58,797 nt of DNA, from positions 1 to 58,797 of the forward strand of contig JAUMAF010000032.1 of the NCBI GenBank assembly GCA_032117045.1, written 5' to 3'. Source of the DNA: Pirellulales bacterium. Lineage in GTDB: Bacteria; Planctomycetota; Planctomycetia; Pirellulales; UBA1268. Below, piece after piece: positions 2,499-56,975 of this stretch. The position numbers and the translations under genes were made by a program. Numbering within the stretch: position 1 is the stretch's first letter; each line of letters starts with the position of its first letter. The notes below the pieces were generated by a model. The model was not told the origin of the DNA. It searched no databases and saw nothing but the letters and a program-made list of their open reading frames with translations.

Positions 2499-4526
2499 AT
2501 GCGGCGACGAACCGTGCGACGTGTAGCCGAAGCGGCATTCGAGCGCCTCGAGCGTCGGCAGCCGCTCGCCGGCGACCTGATGCCCATCCCGACGGCTCCG
2601 TGGACGCCGGCCGTCGCCTCACCCCCCGCCGGCATCCGAGCCGTGACCGTGTCGGCGAGCTCCGCCCCGGCGCTCCTGGCCACGGTCGTGCCCTACGCCG
2701 ACGCGCTGTTCGGTGACACCCAGGCTGTGGCGACCGATACCCGGGTCGTGACCCGCGATTTCGCGGCCGTGGGCCGCGGTTTCCGCACCGAACTGCCGAT
2801 CGCCGTGGGCAACGTGCCGCTGGGCGCGACGGTGCAGCTCGAGGTGCTCAGCGGCCTCACAACCTGGAACGGACGAGGCGCGGTTCCGACCTTCCGCCCC
2901 GTGGCCCGGGACCTCGAACTGAACCTGCAGCTGGGTGGAGTGCCGGTGGCGGGGCTCGATCTGCGGGTCGGTGAACGGACCAACCTGGCCGTGCCGCCGC
3001 AGCGGGGCGAGATCCGCCGCACCATGCCGCTCGCCGCCTCCGACGGCCAGCCACTCGAGCGGCGGCTCGCCGTCACGATCGGCAGCGGCGGCACGGGCCA
3101 TCGGTTCACGAAGCCGGGTGCGTCGCCGGGCCTGTATGCCTTCACGGGCCTCGTCTCCATCGGCGGCATCGAGACCGTCCGTTCGTCGCGGCCGGTGACG
3201 TTCGTGTTCAGGATCGGCCCAGTCTCCGATGCGGCCGTGCAGGCCGCCGCGGCTGCGTTCTCCTCGCCGACGACCGGGCCATCGGCCGTGCTCGCCGTGG
3301 CGGGCCGCTCAGCCGGCATCGACCGGCCGTTCAGCAACGCGATCCTGGTCACGGTCGACTACTCCGAGCCGGTCACCGTGTCGCGGCAGTCGCCGCAGCT
3401 GCCGATCTTCATCGGAGGCGTGCGTCGGCTGGCGACGCTGCCGGTCGATGCCCCGCGGACGAACGTCCGGCAGCTGACGTTCTCCTATCCGCTCCCCGTC
3501 GAGCTCCAGGAAGGCTCGCTGCTCGACATCGGCGCGTCGCTGATTCTTCCCGCCGGCGCCTCGATCCGAACCGCGGGCGGCACGCCGGCGATCACGAGCC
3601 TGCCCACCGCGGGCAGCCGGGGCATTCCGCTCGAGTACCAGGGTGCCATCGAGCACGTGTCCGCCGACATCACCCGCGACACGAGGTTCCGGGCTGGGAC
3701 CACGTACGTTATCACGGCGGAAGTCCATGTCACGGCGAGCACGACGCTCACGATCGATGACGGCGTCCGGGTGCTGATCCGCAATGGCTCCGTGAACGGG
3801 CGGAATCTGACGGCCGCGGCGCTGGTGTTCGATACGGGGTCGCGGCTGCGGGCTCAGACCGTTTCCTTCACAGCATCCGACGCGAGCGACAGGCCGGCCA
3901 CCCAGGCTCTCAATGGCGGAGTGTTCTTCTGCGGCTCCTTCCGCAAAGGGACCAAGGACAACATCTCGAGCCACACCGGCTTCGGGTTCCGCAGTTCGAG
4001 GTTTATCGCGAACCGGATCGAATGCTCCTATCTCGGCCGTCCAGATCCGGTTCCCGGGGACGGGGCGGACCGCGACGACATCGACGCCATCTCGCTGATC
4101 GGCGTCGGGCCGAACGAGTGGAAGGTGGCAAGCGTCTCCAGCACGAACTCGGGCGATGACGGCTTCGACGTGACCAACTCGAGCATCGCCATGGCCTCAC
4201 TGACCATCGTGAATCCGTTCGAGGACGGGATGAACGTGACGAGCAGTCTGGTCGAGGTGACCGCGAGCTGTACGATCAGCATGTCGCGGAGCACCGCCCC
4301 CGACCGGGAGCTGTTCGACCTCGAGACCGACGCCGGTACGGCGCAGATCGTGTTCCAGCGGCTGGCGGCGCTCGACCTCCGAGGCTACTGGGGCGACCGC
4401 TACGACGAAGCGCGGCTCGCCTCCTCCGACATGCCGCAGCCGAATCCGCTCGTCAAGGAATGGTACGAGTTCGTCGGCATCCTCCGCCGCGGCCCGGCGA
4501 AGGTGTATTCGATCAAGGCGGACTGA
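2499..4526 (+). CDS. Secreted hypothetical protein with an N-terminal FERLERRQPLAGDL motif and a probable C-terminal parallel beta-helix
   Basis: ATG at 2499 is in frame with ORF 2340..4526 and lies 12 nt after the upstream stop. The N-terminus MRRRTVRRVAEAAFERLERRQPLAGDL matches the F-E-x-L-E-x-R-x-x-L leader common in planctomycete extracellular proteins. The C-terminal half (ITAEVHVTASTTLTIDDGVRVLIRNGS ... SGDDGFDVTNSSI ... FEDGMNVTSSLVEV) looks like a pectate-lyase-type beta-helix. Confidence 0.6.
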   Translation: MRRRTVRRVAEAAFERLERRQPLAGDLMPIPTAPWTPAVASPPAGIRAVTVSASSAPALLATVVPYADALFGDTQAVATDTRVVTRDFAAVGRGFRTELPIAVGNVPLGATVQLEVLSGLTTWNGRGAVPTFRPVARDLELNLQLGGVPVAGLDLRVGERTNLAVPPQRGEIRRTMPLAASDGQPLERRLAVTIGSGGTGHRFTKPGASPGLYAFTGLVSIGGIETVRSSRPVTFVFRIGPVSDAAVQAAAAAFSSPTTGPSAVLAVAGRSAGIDRPFSNAILVTVDYSEPVTVSRQSPQLPIFIGGVRRLATLPVDAPRTNVRQLTFSYPLPVELQEGSLLDIGASLILPAGASIRTAGGTPAITSLPTAGSRGIPLEYQGAIEHVSADITRDTRFRAGTTYVITAEVHVTASTTLTIDDGVRVLIRNGSVNGRNLTAAALVFDTGSRLRAQTVSFTASDASDRPATQALNGGVFFCGSFRKGTKDNISSHTGFGFRSSRFIANRIECSYLGRPDPVPGDGADRDDIDAISLIGVGPNEWKVASVSSTNSGDDGFDVTNSSIAMASLTIVNPFEDGMNVTSSLVEVTASCTISMSRSTAPDRELFDLETDAGTAQIVFQRLAALDLRGYWGDRYDEARLASSDMPQPNPLVKEWYEFVGILRRGPAKVYSIKAD

Positions 4527-4528
4527 AT

Positions 4529-4650
4529 TCACGACTGCACGGCCATCCTGGCCCGTGCAGCCTGAACAGCGCGGCATCCTGCCGCGAACTCACGACTGCA
4601 CGGCCATCCTGGCCCGTGCAGCCTGAACAGCGCGGCATCCTGCCGCGAAC
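4529..4650. repeat. Perfect tandem duplication of a 61-bp unit; each unit holds two GC-rich hairpins
   Basis: Unit tcacgactgcacggccatcctggcccgtgcagcctgaacagcgcggcatcctgccgcgaac occurs at 4529-4589 and 4590-4650, 61/61 identical. Hairpin H1 is ctgcacgg..ccgtgcag (4535-4560). Hairpin H2 is cgcggca-tcc-tgccgcg (4570-4586). A partial third copy (4651-4666) coincides with the end of the IS remnant. Confidence 0.95.
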
Positions 4651-4655
4651 TCTCG

Positions 4656-5290
4656 GCTGCACGAGGGCGCCATCAAGCCCAACGCCGTGATGCGTCGGCC
4701 GCGAACCACCCGGGACGCCCAGATCGGCCTCGGCTCTGTGATGAACGCAATGAGTCGGATGTCTCCGTCTCACCCCGGGCACGCAAGCGAAGACTCCTCA
4801 AGCACCAGAGCCATGAGCTTGGCCCGGGCAAACCGCTAGGTGACACGGGCAGATGGCTAGCCATTTGAATCGCCGCCGGCCGCGGAATGTCCGTGCACCG
4901 CATGCCCCGCCGGTCCCGGCATTGCCGCGCTCAGCGACGAACCCGAGAGCGAGTGCCGTGACGGCGGACCTGAGTTTGCGATTCGGAGCGAACATCCCGT
5001 GATACCGGTGCCGGTGCTTCCGCGGTAACGGCACGGGATCGGCCAGCCCGTCCAAGAAGTCAAGCGGCAAGGATTCGACGACGCCGTGGGCTCCCCGCCC
5101 CGTGGGCTCCCGCCCACGACCTGGGCCATCGACAGCCTTCACAAGACCTTCAACATCAGGAGCGCAGCAAGCATGGTCTGCGCCGGCTCGCGACGCTTCC
5201 AAGCAATCGTAGCCGGGGATCGCGCCGGGGACGTAGCCGCGGCGTCCATATGGAGTCCTCGGGTCGCTTGCTCAAAGGCCCCTCAACTGC
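4656..5290 (-). pseudogene. IS91-family (Y2 HUH rolling-circle) transposase, decayed C-terminal remnant
   Basis: The minus-strand translation gives PLDFLDGLADPVPLPRKHRHRYHGMFAPNRKLRSAVTA, which resembles the conserved PLEFL..LA.LVP.PR.H..RYHGVLAPN block. About 70 codons later, in a different frame, it gives ACPG*DGDIRLIAFITEP, a CxxC zinc motif interrupted by TGA. So there is at least one frameshift and one in-frame stop. The N-terminal catalytic part is absent. Confidence 0.6.
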
Positions 5291-5350
5291 GTATCGTGAT
5301 CAATTCGTGAAAACCCTTCCTTGCTCCGTTTTTTTAGGGGAGATCCCACC

Positions 5351-6685
5351 ATGAAACGAGCCTCACTCGTACCGCTCGTGGTCATCCTCGTGTTAGTCGT
5401 CACGATGTCTGGTGAGTCCCATGGCGAGCCCGTCGCTCCGGCGTCGGCCAGTTCCGTAGTGCTCGTGGCTGGGAACGTCTGGGACGGTCTCGCCGATGCG
5501 GCTCTCGGTCCGATGGAGATCCTCGTTCAGGGCGGTCGGATTGCAGGCATGGGCAAGACGGTCGAGCGTCCCGTCGGGGCCCAAATCGTCGATCTCTCTG
5601 AGCACACCGTGACCCCCGGTTTCATCGACTGTCATGTCCACATCACGATGCGGCCGGAAGACGAGGGAGCGATCTGGGCACTTTCCCCCGCCGACAAGGC
5701 CGTGCTCGGCGTGCAGGCACTTCGCGTCCTGCTGGACCGCGGATTCACGACGGTTCGCGACCTCTGCGACATGGACTTCGGCGGCTATACCACGGTGTCG
5801 CTCCAGCGGGCCGTGGAGAAGGGACTCGTTGCCGGCCCCCGCATGATCGTGGCAGCGCACCTCGTGTCAACGAGCGGTGGTCACGGCGACGCGCGTCCCC
5901 TCGAGGCGGCGCAGACTCCGGTCACCCAGATCAACTTGGCGGACGGTGTTGATGAGATCCGCCGGGTCGTCCGCACCGAGGTGAGCCGGGGCTCGCAGTG
6001 GATCAAGTTCGGTGCGACCGGCGGATTCGCTAGTCCGGCCGATGATCCATCGCAGGTGCCTTACAGTCAGGCGGAGATTGACGCGATCGTCTCGACGGCC
6101 CGTGACCTTGGCGTCCCCTGCACGCCTCACGCCTACGGCGACGAGGGCATTCGCCGCTCGATCATGGCGGGCGTTCGAAGTGTCGAGCACGGCAGCATGG
6201 CATCGCTCGAGACGTTGAAACTTATGGAGACTCGCGGCGTTTATCTGGTACCCACGCAGATCGCCGTCGTGCGGTTTGCGCGGCTCATTGATGACGATGC
6301 CTTCTGGAAAGCGGTCAATGAGCCACCTCATGTTCGGGCGAAGTATCGCAAACACGCGAAGGCTATTGTCGAGAGCGCTCGCAACCTTTCCACCTGCGGC
6401 GTGAAGATAGCCCTCGGCAGCGATTTTGGCACATTCCCACTGGAGCAGAGCAATGCAGCCGAGTTCACCGAACTGGTGGCCAACGGGCTGTCGATTCCTC
6501 GCGCCCTACGAGCCGGAACGAGCGTGGCGGCCGAACTATTGATGCGAGATGACATCGGCGTACTCGCGGTTGGCAAGGCCGCCGATATCGTCGCCATGCC
6601 GGGCGATCCGTTTAAGGACATCACTGTCACCGAACGGGTCGATTTCGTGATGAAGGGCGGCGTGGTCGCAAAAAGCTGTCGGTGA
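5351..6685 (+). CDS. Secreted metal-dependent amidohydrolase (COG1228 imidazolonepropionase / Xaa-Pro dipeptidase-like family)
   Basis: ATG 5351 is preceded by AGGGGAG. Signal-like N-terminus MKRASLVPLVVILVLVV. HxH motif TPGFIDCHVHI, later metal ligands CTPHAYGD, SVEHGS, ALGSDFG. Codon usage is visibly less GC3-biased than in neighbouring genes. Confidence 0.85.
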   Translation: MKRASLVPLVVILVLVVTMSGESHGEPVAPASASSVVLVAGNVWDGLADAALGPMEILVQGGRIAGMGKTVERPVGAQIVDLSEHTVTPGFIDCHVHITMRPEDEGAIWALSPADKAVLGVQALRVLLDRGFTTVRDLCDMDFGGYTTVSLQRAVEKGLVAGPRMIVAAHLVSTSGGHGDARPLEAAQTPVTQINLADGVDEIRRVVRTEVSRGSQWIKFGATGGFASPADDPSQVPYSQAEIDAIVSTARDLGVPCTPHAYGDEGIRRSIMAGVRSVEHGSMASLETLKLMETRGVYLVPTQIAVVRFARLIDDDAFWKAVNEPPHVRAKYRKHAKAIVESARNLSTCGVKIALGSDFGTFPLEQSNAAEFTELVANGLSIPRALRAGTSVAAELLMRDDIGVLAVGKAADIVAMPGDPFKDITVTERVDFVMKGGVVAKSCR

Positions 6686-6740
6686 GTACGCTTCGGTCGC
6701 CGTGTGGAGCCTGCGCCGCGGAAAGCTCCGGATAGAGCGA

Positions 6741-6961
6741 CGGTGATTCAAATGGCAAGCCCCGCTCCCATGACACCTCGTGGCCTGCGCGGGCTAGGCT
6801 CATGGCTTGGATGGGTGAGAAGTTTTTGCTTGCGTGCCCGGGGTGCGGCGGCGACATCCGACTCTTTGCGTTCATCACAGAGCCGAGGCGGATCTGGGCG
6901 TCCCGGGTGGTTCGCGTCCCACGCCTTACGGCGTTGGGCTTGGATGGGGGCCTCGTGCAGC
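6741..6961 (+). pseudogene. Second, shorter IS91-family transposase C-terminal remnant, inverted relative to 4656-4875
   Basis: The reverse complement aligns by hand to 4656-4875 at roughly 80% identity. It translates to LLACPGCGGDIRLFAFITEPRRI (CxxC intact). No upstream transposase sequence remains. It ends with the same hairpin and terminal cctcgtgcagc as the left copy. Confidence 0.6.
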
Positions 6962-7073
6962 GTGGATGGAGTCGACGTCGTGTCGCCCTGTCGGGCGGTC
7001 CGCATCGCTGACGCGATTGCGGCTTCCTTATGGTCCCTGCAAGCGCCACCGCATGAGCAAAACGACTCCCCGC

Positions 7074-7146
7074 GGCACGAACTCAGCGAGGGGCGGCCCG
7101 TGCCACCCCGAGCCACGCAAACGTCCTGCGACGGAGCATGGGCTCC
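7074..7146 (+). repeat. Degenerate / internally deleted copy of the long structured intergenic element
   Basis: ggcacgaactcagcgaggggcggcccgtgcc matches the 5' arm of the element. accccgagcc and aacgtcctgcgacggagcatgggc match its 3' arm. The central ~100 nt are missing. Confidence 0.6.
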
Positions 7147-7313
7147 TTCGAGACATACGACCGTCGGCCGCCGAGGCGCGGGCATTGCCGCAGCATGATG
7201 GCAGGCCGTGTCGAGCGTGCCATCCGGGATGCCGTCGCTCGCGCTCCGCGCTTCCCCCCGGCTGCTCAGGCGCTCTGCTAATCTGTGGCGGAACCCCGCA
7301 GGAAGGAGCCGCT

Positions 7314-9176
7314 GTGGCCGGGCAGTTTGAGACCGACGACGCGAGCCCGCTCGACGCGCGGATCGCGGAAGTGCTCTCGCGATGGTGGGGCTTCGACACC
7401 CTCCGGCCGCTGCAGGCCGAGGCGATCGCCGCCGCCCTCGACGGCCGCGACTCGCTCGTCGTGATGCCGACCGGCGGTGGCAAGAGCCTCTGCTACCAGC
7501 TGCCTCCCCTGGTTGGCGAATCGACCGACGTCGTCCTCTCACCGCTCGTCGCCCTGATGAAGGATCAGGTCGATGCCCTCGAGGCCATCGGCTACCCTGC
7601 GGCGGCGCTCCACGGCGGCATGTCGCAAGACGAGCGAGGGGGCGTTCGCGATCGGCTGGCCGCAGGTGAACTCCGGCTCCTGTTCGTGGCGCCCGAACGC
7701 CTCGTCAACACCGGCCTGCTTGATCAGCTCGCCCAGGTGGGCGTGAAGCGTTTCGCCATCGACGAGGCCCACTGCATCAGCCACTGGGGCCATGACTTCA
7801 GACCGGAATACCGGCAGCTCGCCCTGCTCCGCGAACGGTTTCCCTCGGCTAGCATCCATGCCTTCACGGCCACCGCCACGCCCCGGGTACGGGACGACAT
7901 CGCGCGGCAGTTGAATCTCCGGGATCCGGCGCGGCTCGTGGGCACCTTCGACCGGCCAAATCTGGTCTACCGGGTGGTGCCGAGAACCGACCGTGTCGCC
8001 CAGACCCTCGCGATCCTCGGCCGTCACAAAGGCGAGGCCTCGATCGTCTACTGCATCTCGCGAAAGGAGACGGAGCGGCTGGCCGAGCGGCTCGCCGCCG
8101 AAGGCATTCTTGCCCGCCCCTACCATGCCGGCCTCGACGCCCGGGAGCGTCACAAGACGCAGGAGGCCTTCGCCCGGGAGACGATCGACGTCGTGGTGGC
8201 CACCGTCGCCTTCGGCATGGGCATCGACCGCTCCGACGTCCGGCTCGTGCTCCACACCTCGCTGCCCAAGAGCCTGGAGGCCTATCAACAGGAAACGGGC
8301 CGTGCCGGCCGGGATGGCCTCGCGGCGGAGTGCGTGCTTCTCTACTCCTCGGCCGACGTCTTCAGCTGGGAATCCCTCGTCCGCAAAAGCGCGGCCGAAT
8401 CAGAACTCGAACCCGACGAGCAGGAGCGACTCATCGCCTCGCAGGCCGAACACCTGCATGCCATGCGCCGCTACGCGCAGGCCGCCCGCTGCCGGCATGC
8501 GGCGCTCTCGGAGTATTTCGGGCAGGCGTATCCCGCCGAGAACTGCGGCGCCTGCGACGTGTGCCTGGGCGAGACGGAGAGCCTGCCCGACGCGACGGTG
8601 ATGGCCCAGAAGATCATTTCCTGCGTGGCCCGCGTGCAGGAGCGCTTCGGCGTGCGGCACGTCTGCGAGGTGCTCCGCGGCGCGAAGACGGACGGCATCG
8701 TGCGGCACGGCCACGACCGGCTCTCCACGTTCGGCCTGCTCCCAACCCTCGATCAGCGGGCGGCGGAAAACCTCGTTCATCAGCTACTCGATCAGGAACT
8801 CCTCTCCCGCACCGCCGGCGACCGTCCTGTCGTGACGCTCAACGAGCGTTCCTGGGAGGTCTTGCGGGGTCAACGATCCGTGGTGCTGCTGGAGCCCCGT
8901 GCAGGCAGGGCGAAGTCCACCAAGGCCGACACCGACGACTGGCAGGGCGTCGATCGCGACCTGTTCGAGCGGCTGCGGAAGTGGCGGCGGCGGATCGCGG
9001 AAGCGCGAGGCAAGCCCGCCTGGACGATCCTCGACGACAAGGCCCTGCGGGCGATCGCGCGCGAGAAGCCTGCCTCACCCGCCGCCCTGCTCCGCTGCAA
9101 GGGCATCGGCGAAAAAAGGCTCGCCGACTTCGGTGCCGAACTGCTCAATCTCGTCGCCGGCCAAGCGGCCGAGTAA
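7314..9176 (+). CDS. recQ: ATP-dependent DNA helicase RecQ
   Basis: GTG 7314 is preceded by GGAAGGAG (7301-7308). Motif I TGGGKSLCYQLP, DEAH box FAIDEAHCISHWGHDFRPEY, Zn-binding cysteines CRHAALSEYFG...CGACDVC, C-terminal HRDC domain (WRRRIAEARGKPAWTILDDKALRAIA..GIGEKRL). The ORF-track start at 6834 runs through IS and repeat debris and is rejected. Confidence 0.95.
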   Translation: MAGQFETDDASPLDARIAEVLSRWWGFDTLRPLQAEAIAAALDGRDSLVVMPTGGGKSLCYQLPPLVGESTDVVLSPLVALMKDQVDALEAIGYPAAALHGGMSQDERGGVRDRLAAGELRLLFVAPERLVNTGLLDQLAQVGVKRFAIDEAHCISHWGHDFRPEYRQLALLRERFPSASIHAFTATATPRVRDDIARQLNLRDPARLVGTFDRPNLVYRVVPRTDRVAQTLAILGRHKGEASIVYCISRKETERLAERLAAEGILARPYHAGLDARERHKTQEAFARETIDVVVATVAFGMGIDRSDVRLVLHTSLPKSLEAYQQETGRAGRDGLAAECVLLYSSADVFSWESLVRKSAAESELEPDEQERLIASQAEHLHAMRRYAQAARCRHAALSEYFGQAYPAENCGACDVCLGETESLPDATVMAQKIISCVARVQERFGVRHVCEVLRGAKTDGIVRHGHDRLSTFGLLPTLDQRAAENLVHQLLDQELLSRTAGDRPVVTLNERSWEVLRGQRSVVLLEPRAGRAKSTKADTDDWQGVDRDLFERLRKWRRRIAEARGKPAWTILDDKALRAIAREKPASPAALLRCKGIGEKRLADFGAELLNLVAGQAAE

Positions 9177-9187
9177 TGCGCGTGTGC

Positions 9188-9213
9188 AAGCCGACCGGCT
9201 GTAGGGCCGCGGG
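9188..9213 (-). repeat. Decayed copy of short hairpin repeat, subfamily R1
   Basis: aagccgaccggctgtagggccgcggg compared with the R1 consensus reverse complement aagccgaccggccgtgaggccgcgg. It lies 12 nt after the recQ stop. Confidence 0.7.
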
Positions 9214-9246
9214 CAAACCGCTCTGAATCCGGGCCCAACCCTGGTG

Positions 9247-9347
9247 CACCCGACGCCTCACGGCGTTGGGCTTGTACCGTTCACCCCACGCCTCACGGCG
9301 TTGGGCTTGTACCGTTCACCCCACGCCTCACGGCGTTGGGCTTGTAC
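9247..9347 (+). repeat. Tandem array (35-bp period, 2.9 copies) of short hairpin repeat subfamily R2
   Basis: Units at 9247-9281, 9282-9316 and 9317-9347: cac-cccacgcc-tcac-ggcgttggg-cttgtaccgtt. Each unit folds as CCC-ACGCC / GGCGU-(U)-GGG with a UCAC loop (GUGA on the other strand). Confidence 0.95.
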
Positions 9348-9436
9348 AGGCGGACGCGTGCAACTCGAGGAGAAGCCGTATGATTTGGGTTGCCGCGACC
9401 GAATCCGTCGGGCTGCCTCCTGGGTCAGGATCACCG

Positions 9437-10510
9437 ATGAACGCACCGACTGCCGCCCTGCACCGCCTCGGCCAGAGCCTCTGGCTCGACAACATCACGC
9501 GGACGATGCTCGACGACGGCACGCTCGCCCGCTACATCGCCGACTTTTCCGTGACCGGCCTCACGAGCAACCCCACGATTTACAACCTGGCCGTGAAGAC
9601 CGGATCGGCCTACGACACCGCGATCACGGCCAAGAAGCGGCAGGGGCTCGGTGGCGAGCGGCTGTTCTTCGACCTGGCGGTCGAGGATCTGACACGGGCG
9701 GCCGATCTCTTCCGACCGGTCTTCGATCGTAGCGGCGGTGTCGATGGCTGGGTGTCGCTCGAGGTCTCGCCGCATCTGGCGTACGACGCGGCGGCCACGC
9801 TCGCCGCGGCCCGCGATCTGTTCGCCAGAGCGGACCGCCCCAATCTGTTCATCAAGATTCCGGGCACGCCCGCCGGCCTGCCGGCGATCGAGGAGGCGAT
9901 CTTCGCCGGCGTGCCGGTGAACGTGACCCTGCTCTTCACGCCGGAGCAGTATCTCGCGGCGGCCGAAGCCTATTGCCGCGGCATCGAGCGACGGCTCGAT
10001 GCGGGGCTTTCGCCCCGAGTCTGCTCCGTCGCCTCGCTGTTCATCAGCCGCTGGGACGCGGCCTCCACGCCCCACCTGCCCGAGCACCTCAAGAACAGGC
10101 TCGGCATCACGATCGGCGAACGGTGCTACAGGGTCTACCGCGATCTGCTCGGCTCCGACCGGGCCCAGCGGCTGGCCAACGGCGGGGCCCTGCCCCAGCG
10201 GTTGCTCTGGGCCAGCACCGGCACCAAGGATCCGGCGCTCAGCGACCACCTCTATATTCGCGCTCTGGCCGCTGCCCATACCGTCAACACGATGCCCGAG
10301 GCCACGCTTCTCGCCTTCGCCGACCACGGCACCCTCAGCGGGACGCTTTCGGCGGGCGGAGGCATGGCGGAGCGGACCCTGTACGAGATCGAGCGGGCTG
10401 GGGTCGACGTCACGACGCTCGGCGACCAACTCCAGTCCCAAGGGGCCGCGGCCTTCGTGAAGAGCTGGGACGACCTCCTCACCGTGATCGAAGCGAAGGC
10501 CCGCGGCTAA
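9437..10510 (+). CDS. tal: Transaldolase (long actinobacterial-type Tal)
   Basis: Begins MNAPTAALHRLGQSLWLDNITR. Contains TGLTSNPTI and the Schiff-base lysine context NLFIKIPGT, plus VNVTLLF. The ORF-track start at 9266 would read through the tandem hairpin array and is rejected. Confidence 0.9.
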   Translation: MNAPTAALHRLGQSLWLDNITRTMLDDGTLARYIADFSVTGLTSNPTIYNLAVKTGSAYDTAITAKKRQGLGGERLFFDLAVEDLTRAADLFRPVFDRSGGVDGWVSLEVSPHLAYDAAATLAAARDLFARADRPNLFIKIPGTPAGLPAIEEAIFAGVPVNVTLLFTPEQYLAAAEAYCRGIERRLDAGLSPRVCSVASLFISRWDAASTPHLPEHLKNRLGITIGERCYRVYRDLLGSDRAQRLANGGALPQRLLWASTGTKDPALSDHLYIRALAAAHTVNTMPEATLLAFADHGTLSGTLSAGGGMAERTLYEIERAGVDVTTLGDQLQSQGAAAFVKSWDDLLTVIEAKARG

Positions 10511-10517
10511 AGAACCG

Positions 10518-10594
10518 CGTCCGGCGACAGGGCACGGGCAGCCCCGAGCCGCGCACCATTCCATCCCGCGGCCTCACGGCCGGTCGGCTTTCAC
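10518..10594 (+). repeat. 3'-terminal partial copy of the long structured element, including an R1 hairpin
   Basis: cgtccggcgacagggcacgggcagccccgagccgcgc...cccgcggcctcacggccggtcggctttcac matches 21485-21560 of the full copy. It lies between the convergent tal and AraC genes. Confidence 0.85.
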
Positions 10595-10627
10595 GAGCCC
10601 GTGTGCCGAACAGGAGCCAGACGGGGC

Positions 10628-11524
10628 TCACCTGGCCCGCAACGTGTCGGAGGGAGACTCGCCAAACTGACGGCGATAACTGCCGGCGAAGCGGCCGAGT
10701 TCCCAGATTCCATGCCGCGTGAGGATCCGCGCAACCGTGTCGGCGGCCGGGTCTCCTTGCCGCAGCGACCGCCGCACCGCGTGGAGCGTTCTCAGTCGCA
10801 GGTAGTGCCGTGGGGCCACGCCGAACGTGTCGTGAAAGACGCGGGACAGCGTTCGCTCATTGACCCCCACCACGTCGGCCAGGCCGGCGATGGAGCGATG
10901 GTTCACGGGATCGGTCTCCAGCGTGTCGAGCACACGACGCACCACCTCTCGGCGATCGATTTTCGGCCTGCCCACCGCCGCCCCGCGCACATCGGGCGGA
11001 GCAAGGCATGCCGTGGCGGCGCTCACCAATCGGGCGGCAGCATCAGCGCGGGAGGTCGCGGAGAGTTCGGCGAAGCCGGCCGCAGTGGCCACCTGAGACA
11101 CGAGGTGCCGTAATCGATGAACACGGAGAGGGTCGGCATGGAGCACATGGCTTCCCGCCCCCTGCGGCATGACGGCGACGCCTTTCGGCAGTGCGATCGA
11201 GCACCAGGCATGGGCCCGCTGCCGCACACGAATGCAGAAATCACCCCCCGACGGTATGACCAGCAGCGAGCCGTCGCCGCAGCTCTCGCCATTCGCCGAC
11301 TGCTGCTGCGGTTCGCCCAGCGGCATCCAGAGAATCGTGCCCACATGGGTGTTACCGCCGTAGCAGAGGTTGCCGCCCCCCTCATGCCCCAGTTGGAGCA
11401 CGACCGTTTCCACCTGTCGCACGGCGAGCTGCCAATTCCGCGTTTCGACCCCATCGCACACCATGCGAAGGTTGGCGCCACGAACGGCATCGGCCCAGGC
11501 GTCGAAGTCGTCAAATGTCATCAT
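10628..11524 (-). CDS. AraC-family transcriptional regulator
   Basis: C-terminal double HTH: IAGLADVVGVNERTLSRVFHDTFGVAPRHYLRLRTLHAVRRSL ... ILTRHGIWELGRFAGSYRRQFGESPSDTL. Divergent from the sulfatase gene. Confidence 0.9.
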   Translation of the reverse strand: MMTFDDFDAWADAVRGANLRMVCDGVETRNWQLAVRQVETVVLQLGHEGGGNLCYGGNTHVGTILWMPLGEPQQQSANGESCGDGSLLVIPSGGDFCIRVRQRAHAWCSIALPKGVAVMPQGAGSHVLHADPLRVHRLRHLVSQVATAAGFAELSATSRADAAARLVSAATACLAPPDVRGAAVGRPKIDRREVVRRVLDTLETDPVNHRSIAGLADVVGVNERTLSRVFHDTFGVAPRHYLRLRTLHAVRRSLRQGDPAADTVARILTRHGIWELGRFAGSYRRQFGESPSDTLRAR

Positions 11525-21261: not shown

Positions 21262-21366
21262 GTCCTGCCACCGACTCTACCCGCAAAACACCCGAGCCGC
21301 GAGAGCCGTGTCCAAAGCGATCCACATTCCCCCGATCTCGCAATCGGGGGCTTCCACGAAAACGGT

Positions 21367-21600
21367 GCGAACTCAGCGAGGGGCTGCCCGTGCCCCGGAG
21401 CCGGCGTATGCCGCCAAGCGCAGCCAGGATGGCGGAGCGCAGGCGGCATCCGAGTGAGCGAAGGACAGGATGTCCGCAGCGAACGTCCGGCGACGGGGCA
21501 TGGGCAGCCCCGAGCCGCGCGCCAGGTCAGCCCGCGGCCTCACGGCCGGTCGGCTTTCACACGGGCACGAACTCAGCGAGCTGCCTGTGCCCCGGAGCCG
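21367..21600 (+). repeat. Long structured intergenic element, full copy 1, followed by the start of a second tandem unit
   Basis: The core is bounded by the inverted repeat ggggctgcccgtgcccc (21380-21396) / ggggcatgggcagcccc (21495-21511). R1 hairpin at 21532-21560. The unit restarts at 21561 (acgggcacgaactcagcgagctgcctgtgccccggagccgg). Confidence 0.9.
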
Positions 21601-25014: not shown

Positions 25015-25551
25015 ATGTCCATCGCCACACCCGCCCTCGACGCCTGCCGTGAGACGCTGCCCGATGAACTCAAGGACATTCGCCTCAATCTGGCCGCAGT
25101 GCTGACGGGGGAGAACCTCCAGCCGGCACAATCCCTGGGCACGGCCCTGGCTGCGGCGGCATTCGTGAAGTGTCACAGACTTGTCGATGCCCTCGAGTCA
25201 GACATCCGGGCCGGCCTCGGCGAGGCCGGCCCGGCCGTGATTTCAGACGCCGTCGCAGCCGCCGGCCTGATGGCGATGAACACCGTCTACTACCGGTTTC
25301 GGCACATGCTCGGCAAGGAGAGCTACGAGGCCCGGCCACCGCGGCTGCGGATGAGCCGCATGGCCCAGCCCGCCACGAGCAAGCTCGACTTCGAACTGAT
25401 GAGCCTCGCCTGCGGCGCGCTTGCCGGCTGCGAGCTCTGCATCAAGAACCACGAGGCGAGCCTCCTCCATCTCGGCGCGAGCGAGGATGCCTGCCACGAC
25501 GCCGTCCGCATCGCCGCCGTGATCAATGCCGCCGCCTGCGGCCTCGGCTAG
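25015..25551 (+). CDS. AhpD-like alkylhydroperoxidase (carboxymuconolactone decarboxylase family)
   Basis: 178 aa. The CMD-family CxxC motif ALAGCELCIKNHEASL is followed by AVRIAAVINA. Confidence 0.8.
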   Translation: MSIATPALDACRETLPDELKDIRLNLAAVLTGENLQPAQSLGTALAAAAFVKCHRLVDALESDIRAGLGEAGPAVISDAVAAAGLMAMNTVYYRFRHMLGKESYEARPPRLRMSRMAQPATSKLDFELMSLACGALAGCELCIKNHEASLLHLGASEDACHDAVRIAAVINAAACGLG

Positions 25552-25593
25552 AGCGCATCCCCCGTGACCCTCGGGCTCGAGTGCCCGGTGGAT

Positions 25594-25620
25594 GAAAGCC
25601 GACCGGCCGTGAGGCCGCGG
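25594..25620 (-). repeat. Short hairpin repeat R1 (stand-alone copy)
   Basis: gaaagccgaccggccgtgaggccgcgg, 43 nt downstream of the AhpD-like stop. It reads CGGCC-GUGA-GGCCG on the plus strand. Confidence 0.9.
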
Positions 25621-25657
25621 GCATACCGCAGCCGGGTTCATGCGGCACGCAACTCCA

Positions 25658-25682
25658 CCCTACGCCTCACGGCGTTGGGCTT
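25658..25682 (+). repeat. Short hairpin repeat R2 (stand-alone copy)
   Basis: ccctacgcctcacggcgttgggctt. It overlaps the last 5 codons and the stop of the minus-strand DUF971 gene. Confidence 0.9.
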
Positions 25683-26026
25683 CCTGGAGCCGTGGCGGCC
25701 AACTCGCGGAGATACTCGAGCGTATAGATGCCGCTCGAGTGGCCGTCGGAAAACTCGATCGAGTAGGCATATTGCCCCACCGGCTGCATGCCCATGATCT
25801 CGAGCGGGGCCACCTCCGCGGCCGTCAGCACCGGCAGCAGCGCCGGCTGCAGCGCCGGGGTCGCCGGGGCGGCCCGCTTCTCGCGGCAGGTCGCGCAGGG
25901 GCAGGCGTCGCGGAGCAGTCTGGCGGTGGAGACGGCCGCGAGGCCGTCGCTCCACACGATCTCGATGGCGGCTGTTGATCGTCCGTCGGCCACCCGGCGG
26001 ATTGTCGTCGGCACAGGCAGGGTCAT
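25667..26026 (-). CDS. DUF971 domain protein (gamma-butyrobetaine hydroxylase N-terminal-like, Cys-rich)
   Basis: IEIVWSDGLAAVSTARLLRDACPCATCREKR ... VGQYAYSIEFSDGHSSGIYTLEYLRELA is the typical DUF971 pattern. Its ATG overlaps the upstream stop (ATGA at 26023-26026). Confidence 0.8.
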   Translation of the reverse strand: MTLPVPTTIRRVADGRSTAAIEIVWSDGLAAVSTARLLRDACPCATCREKRAAPATPALQPALLPVLTAAEVAPLEIMGMQPVGQYAYSIEFSDGHSSGIYTLEYLRELAATAPGSPTP

Positions 26027-36897: not shown

Positions 36898-36916
36898 CGT
36901 CTCTTTCCAGGGCGGC

Positions 36917-37168
36917 CCGCGGCCTCACGACCGCTCGGCTTGTACCGGATGGAACTCAACGAGGGGCTGCCCGTGCCCCGGAGCCGGCGTATGCCGCCCA
37001 GCGCAGGCACGATGCCGAAGCGCCGGCGGCATCCGAGTGAGCGCAGGACAGGATGTCCGTAGCGAACGTCCGGCGACGGGGCATGGGCAGCCCCGAGCCG
37101 CAGGAGCCCTTGTCGCGAGGCGAGCCGCATTGGCCCGCGGCCTCACGGCCGGTCGGCTTGTACCGGAT
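36917..37168 (+). repeat. Long structured intergenic element, full copy 2, flanked by 34-bp direct repeats containing R1 hairpins
   Basis: R1 + gtaccggat at 36917-36950 and again at 37135-37168 (2 mismatches). Core inverted repeat at 36963-36979 / 37078-37094, outer span 132 bp as in copy 1. Confidence 0.92.
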
Positions 37169-44075: not shown

Positions 44076-44104
44076 GTGAAAGCCGACCGGCCATGAGGCC
44101 GCAG
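44076..44104 (-). repeat. Short hairpin repeat R1 (stand-alone, loop variant AUGA)
   Basis: gtgaaagccgaccggccatgaggccgcag begins 3 nt after the AraC stop. Confidence 0.85.
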
Positions 44105-45551: not shown

Positions 45552-48500
45552 ATGACTTGCTGCCACCGGAGGCGGCCCGCCGATCGCGGGGCCGCTGTTC
45601 GTGTTGTGATCGTGCTGGCCCTCGCCGCCCTCGTGGGATCTCGCTCTCACGCCGAGGTTCTTCTCTACAACTACCTGCAGAACAGCACGGCAAGCTTCAC
45701 CGGCTCCGGCTACACCTACAACGCCTACGACTTCCGAGACAACCGTGAGGCGCTGGCCGAGCGGTTCGTCACCCAGGTGGGCGGCAACGTCATCACCGAC
45801 GTCAAGGTGAATCTCTGGACCGGACTCCCCAACGCGGGAACATTCACGGTCAGCCTCTACTCCGACAGCTCGAACGCCGTTGGCACGAGAGTTGCCACCC
45901 TGGGCACCCGCGACCTTTCCACAATCTATGCCGCAGCCCCTGGGACCCTGACTTCCACCACCTTCAGCGGCCTGAGCCTCGGCCTGACGCCCACCACCTC
46001 CTACTGGATCGTGGTGGAGAACAGTTCCGGCGTCGTCGGCAGTGGGATGTACTGGGGCCTCGGCGGCACCGGCTCCAGCGCCTACGTGTCGCCGAACCCC
46101 ACGTCCGCGGCGAGGTTCAACTTCTATACCACTCCCCAATGGTCGAATGTCAGCGTGCCGGCGCTCGGCATGCAGGTCACCGCCGTGCCCGAGCCGGCAG
46201 CCGGAGACGTCACCTGGAACGTCCCCTCGGGCAACTGGAATGTGGGCAGCAACTGGTCGGGTGGACTCACGCCCTTCGCCAGCGGCACCGCGATCATCGA
46301 TGGCGGCCGGACGGCGCTGCTGGGGAGCGGCGGCGTCGGCACGGCGTCCAGGGCCATCGTCGCGAACACCTCCACCGGCACGATGAGCCTCTCCGGCGGG
46401 CAGTTGACGGCCACTTCGAGCATCGTGGGCATGAGCCAAGGGTCGAACGGCACCGTGACCATCAGCAGCGGCTCCTGGACGAACAGCGGCGATCTCGAGC
46501 TTGGCCGTTCCGGCACCGCGACGATGCAGATCTCCGGCGGCAGGGTGAGCAATGCCACCGGCTACCTCGGCAACTACTACGTGACCGTTGGAGCACAGTC
46601 CAGAGGAAGCGCGACCGTCACCGGCGGCACCTGGGCCAATACAGGCGACCTCTACGTGGGCTGGTCGGGCGTGGGATCGCTCACCGTCAACGGCGGCAAC
46701 GTGACCAATGCCAACGGCATCATCGCCCACCTGCAGGGCTCCAGCGGCAGCGCCACGATCACGGGAGGCACGTGGGCCACGGCCGGCAGCATGGTCGTCG
46801 GTGGCTCCGGCAGCGCGACGATGACCCTCACCGGTGGTGCGGTGCGGGTGAACAGCGGCACGGGAATCCTCACGCTGGCTTCGGCGGCCGGGTCAGTCGG
46901 CACGCTGAACCTCGGAACCGGCACGACGGTGGGCACGCTCGTCACGAGCACGATCACGGGCGGCGCGGGCACCGGCACGGTGAACGTCAACGTCCCGGGC
47001 ACCTACACTCTATCGACGCCGCTCACCGGCACGCTCGCGGTGAACCAGGCCGGCAGCGGCATCATGATCCTCCGCGGCAGCAACACCTACGCTGGCACCA
47101 CCAGCGTGACCGCGGGCTCTCTGCAGGTCGACTCGAATGCCCGCATGGGCTCGAGCGCGCTGACGCTCAACGGCGGTAGATTCCGCTTCGGAGCGGCCTT
47201 CAACGACCTGCGTGCGATCACGCTTGGCACGAACAGCGGCACGCTCGATACGAACGGATTCTCCGTAGCCTCCTCGTCGGTGATCACCGGTAGCGGCGGC
47301 CTGACGAAAACGGGGTTCGGGGGTCTCACGCTTTCGGCGTCGAACAGTTACAGCGGGGGCACCACCATCACCACCGGCAAGGTGACGGTGACCAGCGGCG
47401 GTTCGATCAACCACGCCGCCAATGCCGTGACGATCGCCTTCGGTTCGACGGACGCGGCCGCCCTCGGGATTTCAGGAGGCAGCGTGACCTCCAGCACCGG
47501 ATTTCTGGGCGCTGCCGCGGGCTCGAGCGGCGGTGCCACGGTCACAAGCGGCACCTGGGCCAGCGTGAGCGATCTGTATGTCGGGTATTCGGGCACGGGC
47601 GCGCTGGTCATCGACGGAGGCCGCGTGTCCAACGTGCATGGCTTCGTGGCCAACAACGCGGGCTCCAGCGGATCCGTCACGGTCACGAGCGGCACCTGGG
47701 CCAACAGCGGGAACCTCGAGGTTGGATCGAGCGGCAACGGCTCCCTGGTCGTCAGTGGCGGGAGCGTGACCAACACCACCGGATACGTCGGCAGCGGCGG
47801 GGCCAGCACGGCGACGATCAGCGGCGGCACCTGGGCGAACAGTACCGCGCTCTTCATCGGGCTTGCCACCAACGGCACGCTCAACCTCACGGGGAGCGGC
47901 GCGGTGACCGTGGGCGCCGGGAGCGGGACCGTGACGCTTGCCCGCTACTCGGGAGCCAGTGCCACGCTGAACATAGGAACCGGCGGCGCGGCAGGCACGC
48001 TCACCGCGGGGATCGTCACGGGCTCCCGAGCCGGGGCGGCCGTGAACTTCAACCACACGGGCGACACCACCTTCGCACCGGCGATGATCGGCACGCTTGC
48101 CGTCACCAAGGCCGGTCCCGGCACGACGACCCTGAGCGGCATTAACACCTTCACGGGCACCACGACGGTCTCGGCCGGTCTGTTGCAGATCGACGCCGAC
48201 TCGAGACTCGGTGCGAGCACGCTCACGCTCACCGGCGGTGGCATCCGCTACGGCGCGGCGTTCAACGATCTCCGCGCCGCCACCCTGAGCGGCAGCGGCG
48301 GCACCTTCGACACCAACGGTTTCACCGTCTCGAATGCCTTGGCCCTCTCCGGCACCGGCGGGGTGACGAAGACGGGGCTTGGCTCGCTCACCCTGGCTGG
48401 CAACAAGAGCTACAGCGGCGGGACCACGATCACGCAGGGCACGCTCGTCGCCGGCGCCGCCGGCGCATTTGGCAGCAGTGGAATCATCGTATCCGGCGCG

Positions 48501-49220
48501 GGCACGCTCGATCTTGGCGGATATGCGGTGACCAACGTGATCACCAACGCCGGCGGATCGATTGTCAATGCCGCCGCGTACGGCGGGAGCCAGTCAGTGA
48601 CGGGCACCGTCTCGATAACCGGCACGATCGGGGGGACGGTGACCGTCACGGCTGCTGGTGAACTCAAAGGCAACCAGACCGTGTTTAACGGCCCGGTGTC
48701 GCTGGCGGCCGGGGCGCGGCATTCCCCGGGAACTTCACCGGGCACCCAGAGCTTCACGTCCGGACTCTCCTACGACGCCGGATCGATCCTCACCTGGGAA
48801 CTGGTCGCCAACTCCGGCACGGGGGCCGGCACGAATTACGACTTCCTGAGCGTCACCGGGGGAAGCCTGTCGATCGCAGACGGAGCGACGCTGGACCTCG
48901 TCTTCGATGGCGGCGGCTCGAGTGTTGCTTGGAACGATCCCTTCTGGAACGCCGGCCATTCTTGGACGATCATCGACATCTCGGGCTCGGCGTCGAGCAC
49001 GGGCGACTTCACGCTGGGAATGATCGGCAACGATGCCGTCGGGCAGTCGCTGCTCTCGGTGCGGCCGCTCGCCTCGTTCGAGATCGACCGCAGCGGCTCC
49101 GACGTGCTCGTCACCTACGTTGTTCCAGAGCCCTCGACGCTCACGACGGCAGTCCTGGGCCTGGCCTTTGGCTGGAGCGCCCTGCTCCGGCGGCGCGGCT
49201 GCCGCTACTCGAGTCCGTAG
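45552..49220 (+). CDS. Giant PEP-CTERM-anchored surface protein built of autotransporter-associated beta-strand repeats
   Basis: Signal-like AAVRVVIVLALAALVGSRSHA. Reiterated G-rich beta-strand repeats (ISGGxVSNxxGxxG, TGGTWANxG). C-terminus VVPEPSTLTTAVLGLAFGWSALLRRRG. Confidence 0.88.
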   Translation: MTCCHRRRPADRGAAVRVVIVLALAALVGSRSHAEVLLYNYLQNSTASFTGSGYTYNAYDFRDNREALAERFVTQVGGNVITDVKVNLWTGLPNAGTFTVSLYSDSSNAVGTRVATLGTRDLSTIYAAAPGTLTSTTFSGLSLGLTPTTSYWIVVENSSGVVGSGMYWGLGGTGSSAYVSPNPTSAARFNFYTTPQWSNVSVPALGMQVTAVPEPAAGDVTWNVPSGNWNVGSNWSGGLTPFASGTAIIDGGRTALLGSGGVGTASRAIVANTSTGTMSLSGGQLTATSSIVGMSQGSNGTVTISSGSWTNSGDLELGRSGTATMQISGGRVSNATGYLGNYYVTVGAQSRGSATVTGGTWANTGDLYVGWSGVGSLTVNGGNVTNANGIIAHLQGSSGSATITGGTWATAGSMVVGGSGSATMTLTGGAVRVNSGTGILTLASAAGSVGTLNLGTGTTVGTLVTSTITGGAGTGTVNVNVPGTYTLSTPLTGTLAVNQAGSGIMILRGSNTYAGTTSVTAGSLQVDSNARMGSSALTLNGGRFRFGAAFNDLRAITLGTNSGTLDTNGFSVASSSVITGSGGLTKTGFGGLTLSASNSYSGGTTITTGKVTVTSGGSINHAANAVTIAFGSTDAAALGISGGSVTSSTGFLGAAAGSSGGATVTSGTWASVSDLYVGYSGTGALVIDGGRVSNVHGFVANNAGSSGSVTVTSGTWANSGNLEVGSSGNGSLVVSGGSVTNTTGYVGSGGASTATISGGTWANSTALFIGLATNGTLNLTGSGAVTVGAGSGTVTLARYSGASATLNIGTGGAAGTLTAGIVTGSRAGAAVNFNHTGDTTFAPAMIGTLAVTKAGPGTTTLSGINTFTGTTTVSAGLLQIDADSRLGASTLTLTGGGIRYGAAFNDLRAATLSGSGGTFDTNGFTVSNALALSGTGGVTKTGLGSLTLAGNKSYSGGTTITQGTLVAGAAGAFGSSGIIVSGAGTLDLGGYAVTNVITNAGGSIVNAAAYGGSQSVTGTVSITGTIGGTVTVTAAGELKGNQTVFNGPVSLAAGARHSPGTSPGTQSFTSGLSYDAGSILTWELVANSGTGAGTNYDFLSVTGGSLSIADGATLDLVFDGGGSSVAWNDPFWNAGHSWTIIDISGSASSTGDFTLGMIGNDAVGQSLLSVRPLASFEIDRSGSDVLVTYVVPEPSTLTTAVLGLAFGWSALLRRRGCRYSSP

Positions 49221-56763: not shown

Positions 56764-56780
56764 ACATGACGGATCAAGGC

Positions 56781-56960
56781 GCGGGTCTGCCCATGCCCTA
56801 TCGCTGGACGTTCGCGGATGCCATCGTGGCATCCGCTCACTCGGATGCCGCCTGCACTTCGCCATCCTGGCTTCGTTTGGCGTCATACGCCGGCTCGCGG
56901 GCACGGGCAGCCCCTCGCTGAGTTTATGCCCGTACAAGCCGACCGGCCGTGAGGCCGCGG
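56781..56960 (-). repeat. Long structured intergenic element, full copy 3 (inverted orientation) with a terminal R1 hairpin
   Basis: Arms gggtctgcccatgccct (56783-56799) and gggcacgggcagcccc (56899-56914), outer span 132 bp. R1 at 56932-56960. Lies between the convergent pepA and pepF genes. Confidence 0.9.
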
Positions 56961-56975
56961 GCTCTGTCGTCTGGC

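Follow-up and report, generated by a model that had tools for sequence, protein, structure and literature searches.

What are the small GC-rich hairpins that fill the spacer between recQ and tal in a Pirellulales bacterium, and how did they come to lie directly behind a stop codon? The question was pursued in the window, that is, the whole stretch of 58,797 nt that was analysed (67% G+C), and in related DNA from other genomes and metagenomes. The reading favoured here, to which we give a probability of roughly 0.7, is that the hairpins (R1 and R2) are the conserved core of non-coding, extragenic mobile repeats of freshwater Planctomycetota, which would be moved in trans in a MITE-like manner.

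Copies in the window were located with the patterns CCGCGGCCTCACGGCCGGTCGGCTT for R1 and CCCACGCCTCACGGCGTTGGGCTTG for R2, each with up to 3 mismatches. The 14 hairpins of the preliminary description were all recovered as eight R1 and six R2, and neither pattern matched in any of 100 dinucleotide-preserving shuffles of the window. Positions first given for the minus-strand copies were off by 2-4 nt, because a 4-nt tail had been counted. The 35-bp triple array that had been described is likewise present, being reported by Tandem Repeats Finder at 9247-9347 with a period of 35, 2.9 copies and 98% matches.

In an unbiased scan that took any tetraloop closed by a perfect 5-bp stem, TCAC/GTGA ranked first in the window and the related loci. 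Around this loop the scan resolved just two discrete stem types, R1 (CCGCGGCC..GGCCG[GT]CGG) and R2 (CCCACGCC..GGCGT[T]GGG), plus a rare third (CCGAGGCC..GGCCT[T]CGG), in agreement with the initial proposal of one hairpin family with two subfamilies. The GC stem around TCAC also appears in the folds, where R1 and R2, as DNA and as RNA and on both strands, form a 5-bp upper stem and a 3-bp lower stem with a bulge. The common hairpin therefore has an 8-bp bulged stem, a TCAC/GTGA loop and a GGCTT-NNAC tail; in the NNAC that follows GGCTT the A is conserved at 83% and the C at 80-90%, and the complement reads GT-NN-AAGCC-stem. One orientation gives a GNRA-type GUGA loop. In a structure-aware alignment of 36 distinct variants, with an N inserted by hand in the R2 bulge, paired cells amounted to 94.8% versus 77.6% in shuffles, and three of the eight stem pairs were changed on both sides between R1 and R2. 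These compensatory differences indicate that pairing has been kept, the evolutionary events behind them being few, and the variants were too few for any call on strand preference through G:U pairs. R1 and R2 are thus stem variants of one imperfect palindrome of about 25 nt. Rfam gave no match in the window at gathering scores, and none at 9150-9450 up to E = 1.

Three familiar classes of structured DNA were considered and rejected. Intrinsic terminators do not fit the tails (CTTTCAC/CTTGTAC), and a terminator scan of 4000-11000 flagged no copy. A CRISPR array is incompatible with 10/11-nt spacers that are identical, and the window is without cas domains. The attC core of integrons has the consensus GTTRRRY, which the GTTGGGC/GCCCAAC of R2 fits, but housekeeping genes (recQ, tal, carB, tkt) surround the copies, and the window has no integrase. 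Pfam searches of the window found no transposase, integrase or cas genes.

The copies and their surroundings are as follows, E1, E2 and E3 being larger elements that are treated further below.

4674-4698, minus strand: R2 hairpin that caps, on the outer side, the left copy of the 205-nt inverted repeat E3.
6918-6942, plus strand: R2 hairpin with a TTAC loop, which caps the right E3 copy on the outer side; recQ lies downstream.
9177-9380, no strand assigned: element inserted between recQ and tal, flanked by TAA at 9174-9176 (the recQ stop) and TGA at 9381-9383.
9188-9212, minus strand: decayed R1 in the left part of that insertion, with a short arm of 11 nt on its outer side and a 37-nt linker on its inner side.
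9250-9274, 9285-9309 and 9320-9344, plus strand: the three R2 units of the insertion, in the 35-nt tandem 9247-9347.
Right end of the same insertion: R2 arm of 36 nt, terminating in CCGTA.
10518-10594, plus strand: right terminal repeat of E2, R1 at 10566-10590 and a TCAC tail, in the spacer where the tal and AraC-type genes converge.
21363-21560, plus strand: E2 module, then R1 at 21532-21556, between the carB stop and the start of an rlmL-like gene.
25552-25683, no strand assigned: E1-type doublet, with R1 arm at 25552-25595 (44 nt), R1 on the minus strand at 25596-25620, a 38-nt linker and R2 on the plus strand at 25659-25683.
36915-37163, plus strand: R1 at 36917-36941, E2 core, R1 at 37135-37159 and a GTAC tail, with the transketolase gene downstream.
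44080-44104, minus strand: single R1 with 2 mismatches, between two convergent genes and 7 nt past the end of the AraC-type ORF (44073).
56778-56962, minus strand: E2 module and R1 at 56936-56960, filling the convergent pepA-like/pepF-like spacer.

The genes that flank these hairpins are ordinary chromosomal genes, with Pfam matches to recQ, transaldolase, an AraC-type regulator, carB, a CMD-family protein, DUF971, transketolase, and M17 and M3 peptidases. By the ORF list and the Pfam matches, the 14 copies occupy nine spacers, five tandem and four convergent, and none of the six divergent ones. It had been stated that all copies lie between genes or just after stop codons; this applies to 13 of the 14, which are outside Pfam-supported gene bodies, but not to the R2 at 25659, which sits at a gene edge, overlaps the last codons of the DUF971 gene and provides that gene's stop codon as the TGA of its hairpin loop. 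On the other side of this doublet, the R1 arm adjoins the TAG stop (25549-25551) of the CMD-family gene. A possible R2 arm at 25684-25727 was rejected, as this stretch is the genuine C-terminus of the DUF971 protein, and so was the idea that CCGTATGA supplies the tal start codon, the conserved tal start being at 9437. Elsewhere in the window, and unrelated to the hairpins, the direct-repeat families D1, D5 and D6 are explained by the repeated PATR (passenger-associated transport repeat) units of a 1222-aa protein encoded at 45552-49220.

Beyond the window, the exact R1 23-mer was found in at least 85 stretches, many of them matched at contig ends, with about 12 species-level MAGs among the matches listed; the MAGs are labelled Pirellulales, Planctomycetaceae or Planctomycetota and come mostly from lakes. 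The exact R2 23-mer was found in at least 120 stretches from JGI lake metagenomes, and neither 23-mer occurred in viral contigs (IMG/VR). As far as sampled, the family is confined to one freshwater planctomycete lineage. In the literature searched, no paper contains the R1/R2 sequences, in keeping with the preliminary description, which knew of no account of this family.

The related DNA comprises about 1.3 Mb from at least 12 freshwater Planctomycetota/Pirellulales MAGs and from lake metagenomes, in a first set of 519 kb with loci picked by R1 and a second set of 813 kb picked by R2. With up to 5 mismatches, the census gave 128 R1 and 77 R2 in the first set and 142 R1 and 268 R2 in the second, densities that are biased by the selection of the loci for the presence of R1/R2. 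The reversed-sequence control of these loci gave 0 hits, so that, together with the shuffled window, enrichment is upheld.

Gene calls in the related loci were GC3-based and made for the present analysis. They place 186 of 219 copies in the first set and 330 of 410 in the second outside any ORF, with called ORFs covering 83% and 75% of bases, respectively; most of the overlapping copies only touch ambiguous 5' ORF extensions or the stop codon. Of the convergent spacers 45% are occupied, of the tandem ones 17% and of the divergent ones 9%, and repeat-free spacers are very short (median 22-32 nt). Hairpins downstream of genes lie at a median of 48 nt from the stop codon, and their orientation relative to the upstream gene is unbiased (76 versus 90 in the first set). 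The extragenic location and the occurrence of both orientations noted at the outset therefore hold across the related genomes.

The copies are arranged by a small number of fixed spacings. Back-to-back pairs with a 38-nt linker number 57 in the first set and 121 (88 R2/R1 and 33 R2/R2) in the second, all of them at 36-40 nt, and it is to this class that the R1(-)/R2(+) arrangement after recQ belongs, its gap of 37 nt matching the canonical spacing. In face-to-face pairs the linker measures about 15 nt. Direct tandems, formed by R1 as well as R2 (e.g., three-fold in L141), have 10/11-nt linkers, which gives the 35-nt period, and the 38-nt and 15-nt linker classes together make up arrays with a period of about 103 nt, which reach five units (L164, L165). 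This layout is the architecture of BIMEs and REPINs, and the BIME-like alternation suggested for the recQ site is thereby seen to recur in other genomes.

Hairpins placed so regularly behind genes might be taken for immobile host elements, such as terminators, 3'-end stabilisers or protein-binding sites, that selection keeps alike as conserved cis signals. The median of 48 nt past the stop and the enrichment of convergent spacers are in keeping with this, as are the maintained stem pairing, the GNRA-type GUGA loop in one orientation and the very high conservation of the hairpins across species whose genes are 75-95% identical. However, the stem is not followed by a T run and the terminator scan flags none of the copies, orientation is not biased with respect to the upstream gene, and contigs often break at the repeats. 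Orthologous sites in relatives also bear on immobility.

Syntenic contigs were reached via transaldolase homologues. In relatives with Tal 84-89% identical (L091, L092, L090, L086 and L088), the recQ-tal spacer is empty, with 52-72 nt and no repeat, compared with 260 nt in the window. The alignment reads GGA-TAA-TCT in the relatives and GAG-TAA-(9177-9380, 204 nt)-TGA-TTT in the window, with colinear flanks. A TAA in the relatives against TAA...TGA in the window means that the recQ stop codon was duplicated, with one later change. Furthermore, about 88 kb of syntenic DNA from these 84-89% relatives contains zero copies of R1/R2.

Closer relatives differ in the size and content of the insertions. 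L093 (Tal 98% identical) carries the same recQ-tal insertion with two R2 units versus three in the window, and the contig of a 97% relative begins inside R2 at this site. The tal-AraC spacer is empty in L091 and has three alleles among 97-100% relatives, namely the right end of E2 with R1 in the window, a full E2 core with R1 in L093 and a partly deleted version in L094. Other orthologous sites hold one versus at least two units and differ by one unit of about 103 nt. The comparisons L034/L084 and L019/L022 were too diverged for empty sites to be called or showed synteny on one side only. R1/R2 repeats are thus gained, lost and resized on short time scales. Empty sites, repeat-free syntenic DNA, unit numbers and module contents that vary among 97-100% relatives, and the target-site duplications described next make it very unlikely that the hairpins are immobile signals, and a host role may have been gained by them after insertion.

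The form in which the repeats insert emerged when 41 doublets were aligned. The usual unit is an inverted, back-to-back R2/R1 doublet with the 38-nt linker, and with two inverted arms (about 31-44 nt) it makes up E1, a non-coding palindromic element of 168 nt. Its layout is T-N-A / TACGGRTY..(31 nt)..R2(-)..38..R1(+)..(39 nt)..RAYCCGTA / T-N-A, where the slashes stand for the element ends. Major-allele conservation is 0.97 in R2, 0.73 in the linker, 0.56-0.62 in the arms and 0.36 in the flanks, measured on a set in whose ascertainment R2 played no part. A full copy (L028:2280-2458) folds as one long imperfect hairpin with -44 kcal/mol and z = -3.6.

The flanking 3-bp repeat is direct in 14 cases and inverted in one, with 8 direct versus 1 inverted in the first set and 6 versus 0 in the second, independent set (TTA/TTA included). 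A search by the end motifs only, which is independent of the hairpins, returned 11 pairs, of which 10 span 172-174 nt and 10 have identical triplets. The duplications follow T-N-A (TCA, TGA and TTA, and TAA/TGA at recQ). A TA duplication of the IS630-like kind was rejected, since alignment of the flank beyond the element starts at T[G/A]A and not at TA.

In many copies the duplicated T-N-A is the stop codon of the adjacent gene. The distance from R1 to a convergent stop has a sharp peak at 44 nt (first set, 9 copies; second set, 6), and that from R2 peaks as sharply at 37 nt (4 in the first set, two of them with recognisable arms, and 6 in the second). In the peak copies it is the arm's outer triplet that serves as the stop codon, mostly TGA and sometimes TAA. 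The termini of REPs often supply stop codons (PMC3733652), so that the supply of stop codons by R1/R2 elements is no new trait. A T-N-A target combined with selection against gene disruption would be enough to explain the preference for stop codons.

The recQ-tal feature is one such insertion, at the recQ stop codon, that was later expanded to three R2 units. The element would have been moved in trans by some transposase, with a DDE-type, MITE-like reaction suggested by the terminal inverted arms and the 3-bp duplication. Insertions would build up at stops, given that spacers are very short and that the T-N-A duplication regenerates a TGA or TAA stop, which would make such insertions harmless. 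Since the hairpins are better conserved than the arms and their pairing is kept, they would be recognised by the mobilising protein or else be kept by the host, as 3'-end RNA hairpins for instance. The doublet hairpins are in any case not stand-alone units, being the core of E1 and of mosaics with other modules.

Several observations count against this explanation. Both recognisable arms are kept in only about one quarter of the doublets. Conservation is lower in the arms than in the internal hairpins, whereas in a DDE-type MITE the ends are usually better conserved than the interior. At recQ-tal the left arm measures just 11 nt, even though the duplicated stop directly adjoins it, and the duplicated triplet is imperfect there (TAA/TGA).

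The mosaics involve companion modules, one of which is E2 (in the window at 21363-21531, 36942-37131, 56778-56935 in reverse complement, and a partial copy at 7063-7184). E2 has a core of about 170-180 nt with terminal inverted repeats of about 30 nt (GGGGCTGCCCRTGCCCCG..GCCGG) and AGGAT-loop hairpins. It is always trailed and often preceded by R1 in direct orientation, is sometimes in tandem, and also occurs in relatives (L020, L055, L072, L084, L031 and L093), with 78-85% identity between genomes. The left part of E2 shares homology with the R1 arm of E1; it terminates in CGTATGA.

Hairpins of the form NNN(C)AGGAT(G)NNN have a constant loop and covarying stems (GCCC/GGGC, GGCC, GGAC/GTCC and others). 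They number 37 in the window and loci versus 3-12 for most control loops, and lie in E2 cores and in a 61-nt x2.3 tandem repeat; sites include 4525-4663 (-), 21463-21475 (+) and 37046-37058 (+) as well as related loci. Their AGGAT(G) loop matches RGGAUG, the core of CsrA binding sites, and the AGGAUG-loop hairpins of the E2 cores and 61-nt repeats resemble such sites. Rfam gave a weak match to RsmW (21.8 bits, E = 0.15), and CsrA genes are present in the clade (L064:1886-2173 and L116:832-1194).

The third element, E3, is a 205-nt inverted repeat (4699-5130 on the minus strand and 6736-6917 on the plus strand) that flanks an amidohydrolase gene at 5351-6685. It consists of frameshifted 3' fragments of a transposase pseudogene of the IS91/ISCR family (HUH Y2), which phmmer matched in the window at E = 9e-19 and 2e-11; half an E1 linker and R2 are attached to each fragment. 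It is 75-76% identical in DNA to L095:8552-8977, where the fragment matches ISCR_clade_Ia at E = 1.7e-9. The same ISCR-like pseudogene is broken up in L060 (1424-1760) by a complete E1 that has a TGA duplication; judged by eye against L095, the flanks place this insertion at a TGA some 20 nt away from the E3 junction of the window. This position would suggest that pseudogene and E1 already formed one unit before these genomes diverged. The amidohydrolase gene, whose 85-91% identical homologues occur in four gene neighbourhoods, looks like a mobile passenger. It is not found between the orthologues of gene 2 and recQ in L090. Its next-best homologues, at 64-71%, include proteins that their sources name as Competibacteraceae and Aestuariivirga; Methanoregula and actinomycetes are among those at about 50-55%.

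These junctions raise the possibility that the hairpins are end signals, similar to oriIS/terIS, of a rolling-circle element of the IS91/ISCR type, with its degraded transposase gene beside R2. The R2 copies at 4674 and 6918 directly follow the transposase fragments, L060 has a similar junction, and the adjacent amidohydrolase gene appears in four different contexts. In addition, R2 terminates in GCTTG, and IS91 targets CTTG/GTTC. However, the junctions are within the transposase reading frame rather than past its end, the pseudogene of L060 is interrupted by a complete E1, the better-preserved pseudogene of L095 has no R1/R2 within about 4 kb, and hundreds of R1/R2 copies have no such neighbour. 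An origin of the hairpins as IS91/ISCR end signals is accordingly extremely improbable.

A RAYT is another candidate for an enzyme acting on REP-like hairpins. RAYT and IS200 genes were sought by phmmer with YafM and IS608 TnpA queries, the YafM query agreeing with the alignment of PDB 4ER8. The window and 85 loci contained none, and the metagenome set contained one, at L119:6478-7071(-), which was identified by NCBIfam REP_Tyr_transpos (NF047646; 76.2 bits, E = 2e-21), by the TnpArep of PDB 4ER8 (E = 0.002), and by an HCH motif and the string YVEWNPVKAGL. This gene is adjoined by seven GTAG-tagged REPs of another family, R4, and a cluster of R1/R2 lies 3.5 kb away on the same contig. No second RAYT was found in about 1.5 Mb of clade DNA sampled around repeats.

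R4 (GTAGC[GA][TC]AGGTTTTCAACCTG..) is AT-richer than R1/R2 (GTAGCACAGGTTTTCAACCTGTGC and variants), with 41 copies in the first set, 82 in the second and none in the window. Besides the group with the RAYT at L119:6260-7071, it occurs in L007, L013, L022, L042, L162, L216 and other loci.

In the classical REP/REPIN view, R1/R2 doublets would be copied as single-stranded hairpins by a once-per-genome RAYT that is flanked by the same hairpins, and it was such a mechanism that the preliminary description implied. Much in the form of the repeats agrees with it: they are short imperfect palindromes in which the bulge and an unpaired GT-NN tail are conserved, their inverted doublets of fixed spacing fold as one long hairpin, their arrays resemble BIMEs, and the hairpins are the best-conserved part. 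The clade also encodes a RAYT, and R1/R2 are scarce in divergent spacers, as are REPs (PMC3733652). Nevertheless, the proposed check for a RAYT or HUH gene flanked by R1/R2 led only to the gene in L119, the sole RAYT in about 1.5 Mb, which is flanked by the seven R4 REPs even though its contig carries an R1/R2 cluster. The R1/R2 tail (GT-NN-AAGCC) is neither GTAG nor CGTC, and inverted arms with a 3-bp duplication are the footprint of a MITE.

Y1 HUH transposition, the chemistry of IS200/IS605 and RAYT, makes no target-site duplication, whereas R1/R2 elements show 14 direct against 1 inverted triplets and an empty site. A RAYT flanked by R4 and a 3-bp duplication at R1/R2 therefore likely move the R1/R2 mechanism away from RAYT, and copying by a RAYT is unlikely.

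A gene that would fit the MITE-like reading was also sought. No transposase with matching ends was found in the window or in the roughly 1.5 Mb of related DNA, sampled only around repeats, which weighs against that reading, and the window has no HUH or DDE gene. Recurrent neighbours of the repeats are only ordinary planctomycete families, DUF1501, sulfatases and DUF1559. Element ends spaced 0.26-4 kb apart, as might bound an autonomous partner, gave four pairs; in the one interior examined, the ORFs were judged by eye to be CTP synthase and DAHP synthase.

There is a further and quite doubtful reading, in which R1/R2 would be a hybrid: a REPIN-like hairpin replicator, with two covarying stem types, BIME-like arrays and hairpins that outdo the ends in conservation, yet with a 3-bp T-N-A duplication and a preference for stop codons, moved by a kind of transposase so far unlinked to REP-like repeats. 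Its companion modules with AGGAUG loops could then spread sites of post-transcriptional control, and if this were true, the mosaic could carry such sites to the 3' ends of genes.

The repeats add a well-characterised extragenic repeat family to a phylum, and to an uncultured freshwater lineage, in which such elements have barely been described, and they explain why the assemblies of these genomes break at particular sites. The rapid change in unit number makes them potential strain markers in lake metagenomes. Furthermore, a family with REP-like form and MITE-like footprint that lives beside a classical GTAG-REP/RAYT system is a natural case for studying what mobilises REP-like repeats.

GTAG- and CGTC-tagged super-families of REPs are known from many phyla, including Rhodopirellula baltica and Opitutus terrae (Di Nocera et al., 2013; PMC3733652). 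REPs are defined by a conserved GTAG or CGTC tetranucleotide at one end and are rare between divergent genes (PMC3733652). R1/R2 resemble REPs, BIMEs and REPINs as imperfect palindromes in the 20-40 nt range with an unpaired conserved tail, in having several discrete stem types per genome, in forming inverted doublets with fixed linkers and tandem clusters, and in hairpins that are better conserved than linkers. Their extragenic position near the 3' ends of genes, where they sometimes supply the stop, and their rarity in divergent spacers are shared as well. The likeness to the BIMEs of E. coli extends to two alternating types, distinct linkers (38 and about 15 nt) and tandem reiteration to five units. 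In contrast to REPs and REPINs, the tail is GT-NN-AAGCC instead of GTAG/CGTC, complete units have inverted arms of about 31-44 nt and a 3-bp T-N-A duplication, and the sole RAYT seen in the clade is flanked by another, GTAG-tagged REP family. That family, R4, shares genomes and often contigs with R1/R2 and is likewise extragenic and clustered, but differs in its AT-richer sequence, its canonical GTAG tag, its place beside the RAYT gene and its absence from the window.

Bacterial MITEs that fold as long hairpins include Correia/NEMIS of Neisseria, ERIC/IRU and RUP. E1 is similar to these in being non-coding, about 170 nt long and adjacent to genes, with terminal inverted repeats, a short target duplication of fixed length, a fold in which the whole element is one hairpin, and presence or absence that varies by strain. 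It differs in that the internal hairpins, not the termini, are most conserved, in that R1/R2 modules also occur alone, in 35-nt and roughly 103-nt arrays and in mosaics, and in that no parent insertion sequence was found in the approximately 1.5 Mb sampled around repeats. R1/R2 thus have the features of MITEs except for a known parent element, and depart from REPs in the tag and in the duplication. They contradict nothing in the current understanding of bacterial interspersed repeats: R1/R2 are a new sequence family of a known general kind, the small mobile intergenic repeats, and this family is REP-like in form and MITE-like in its insertion footprint.
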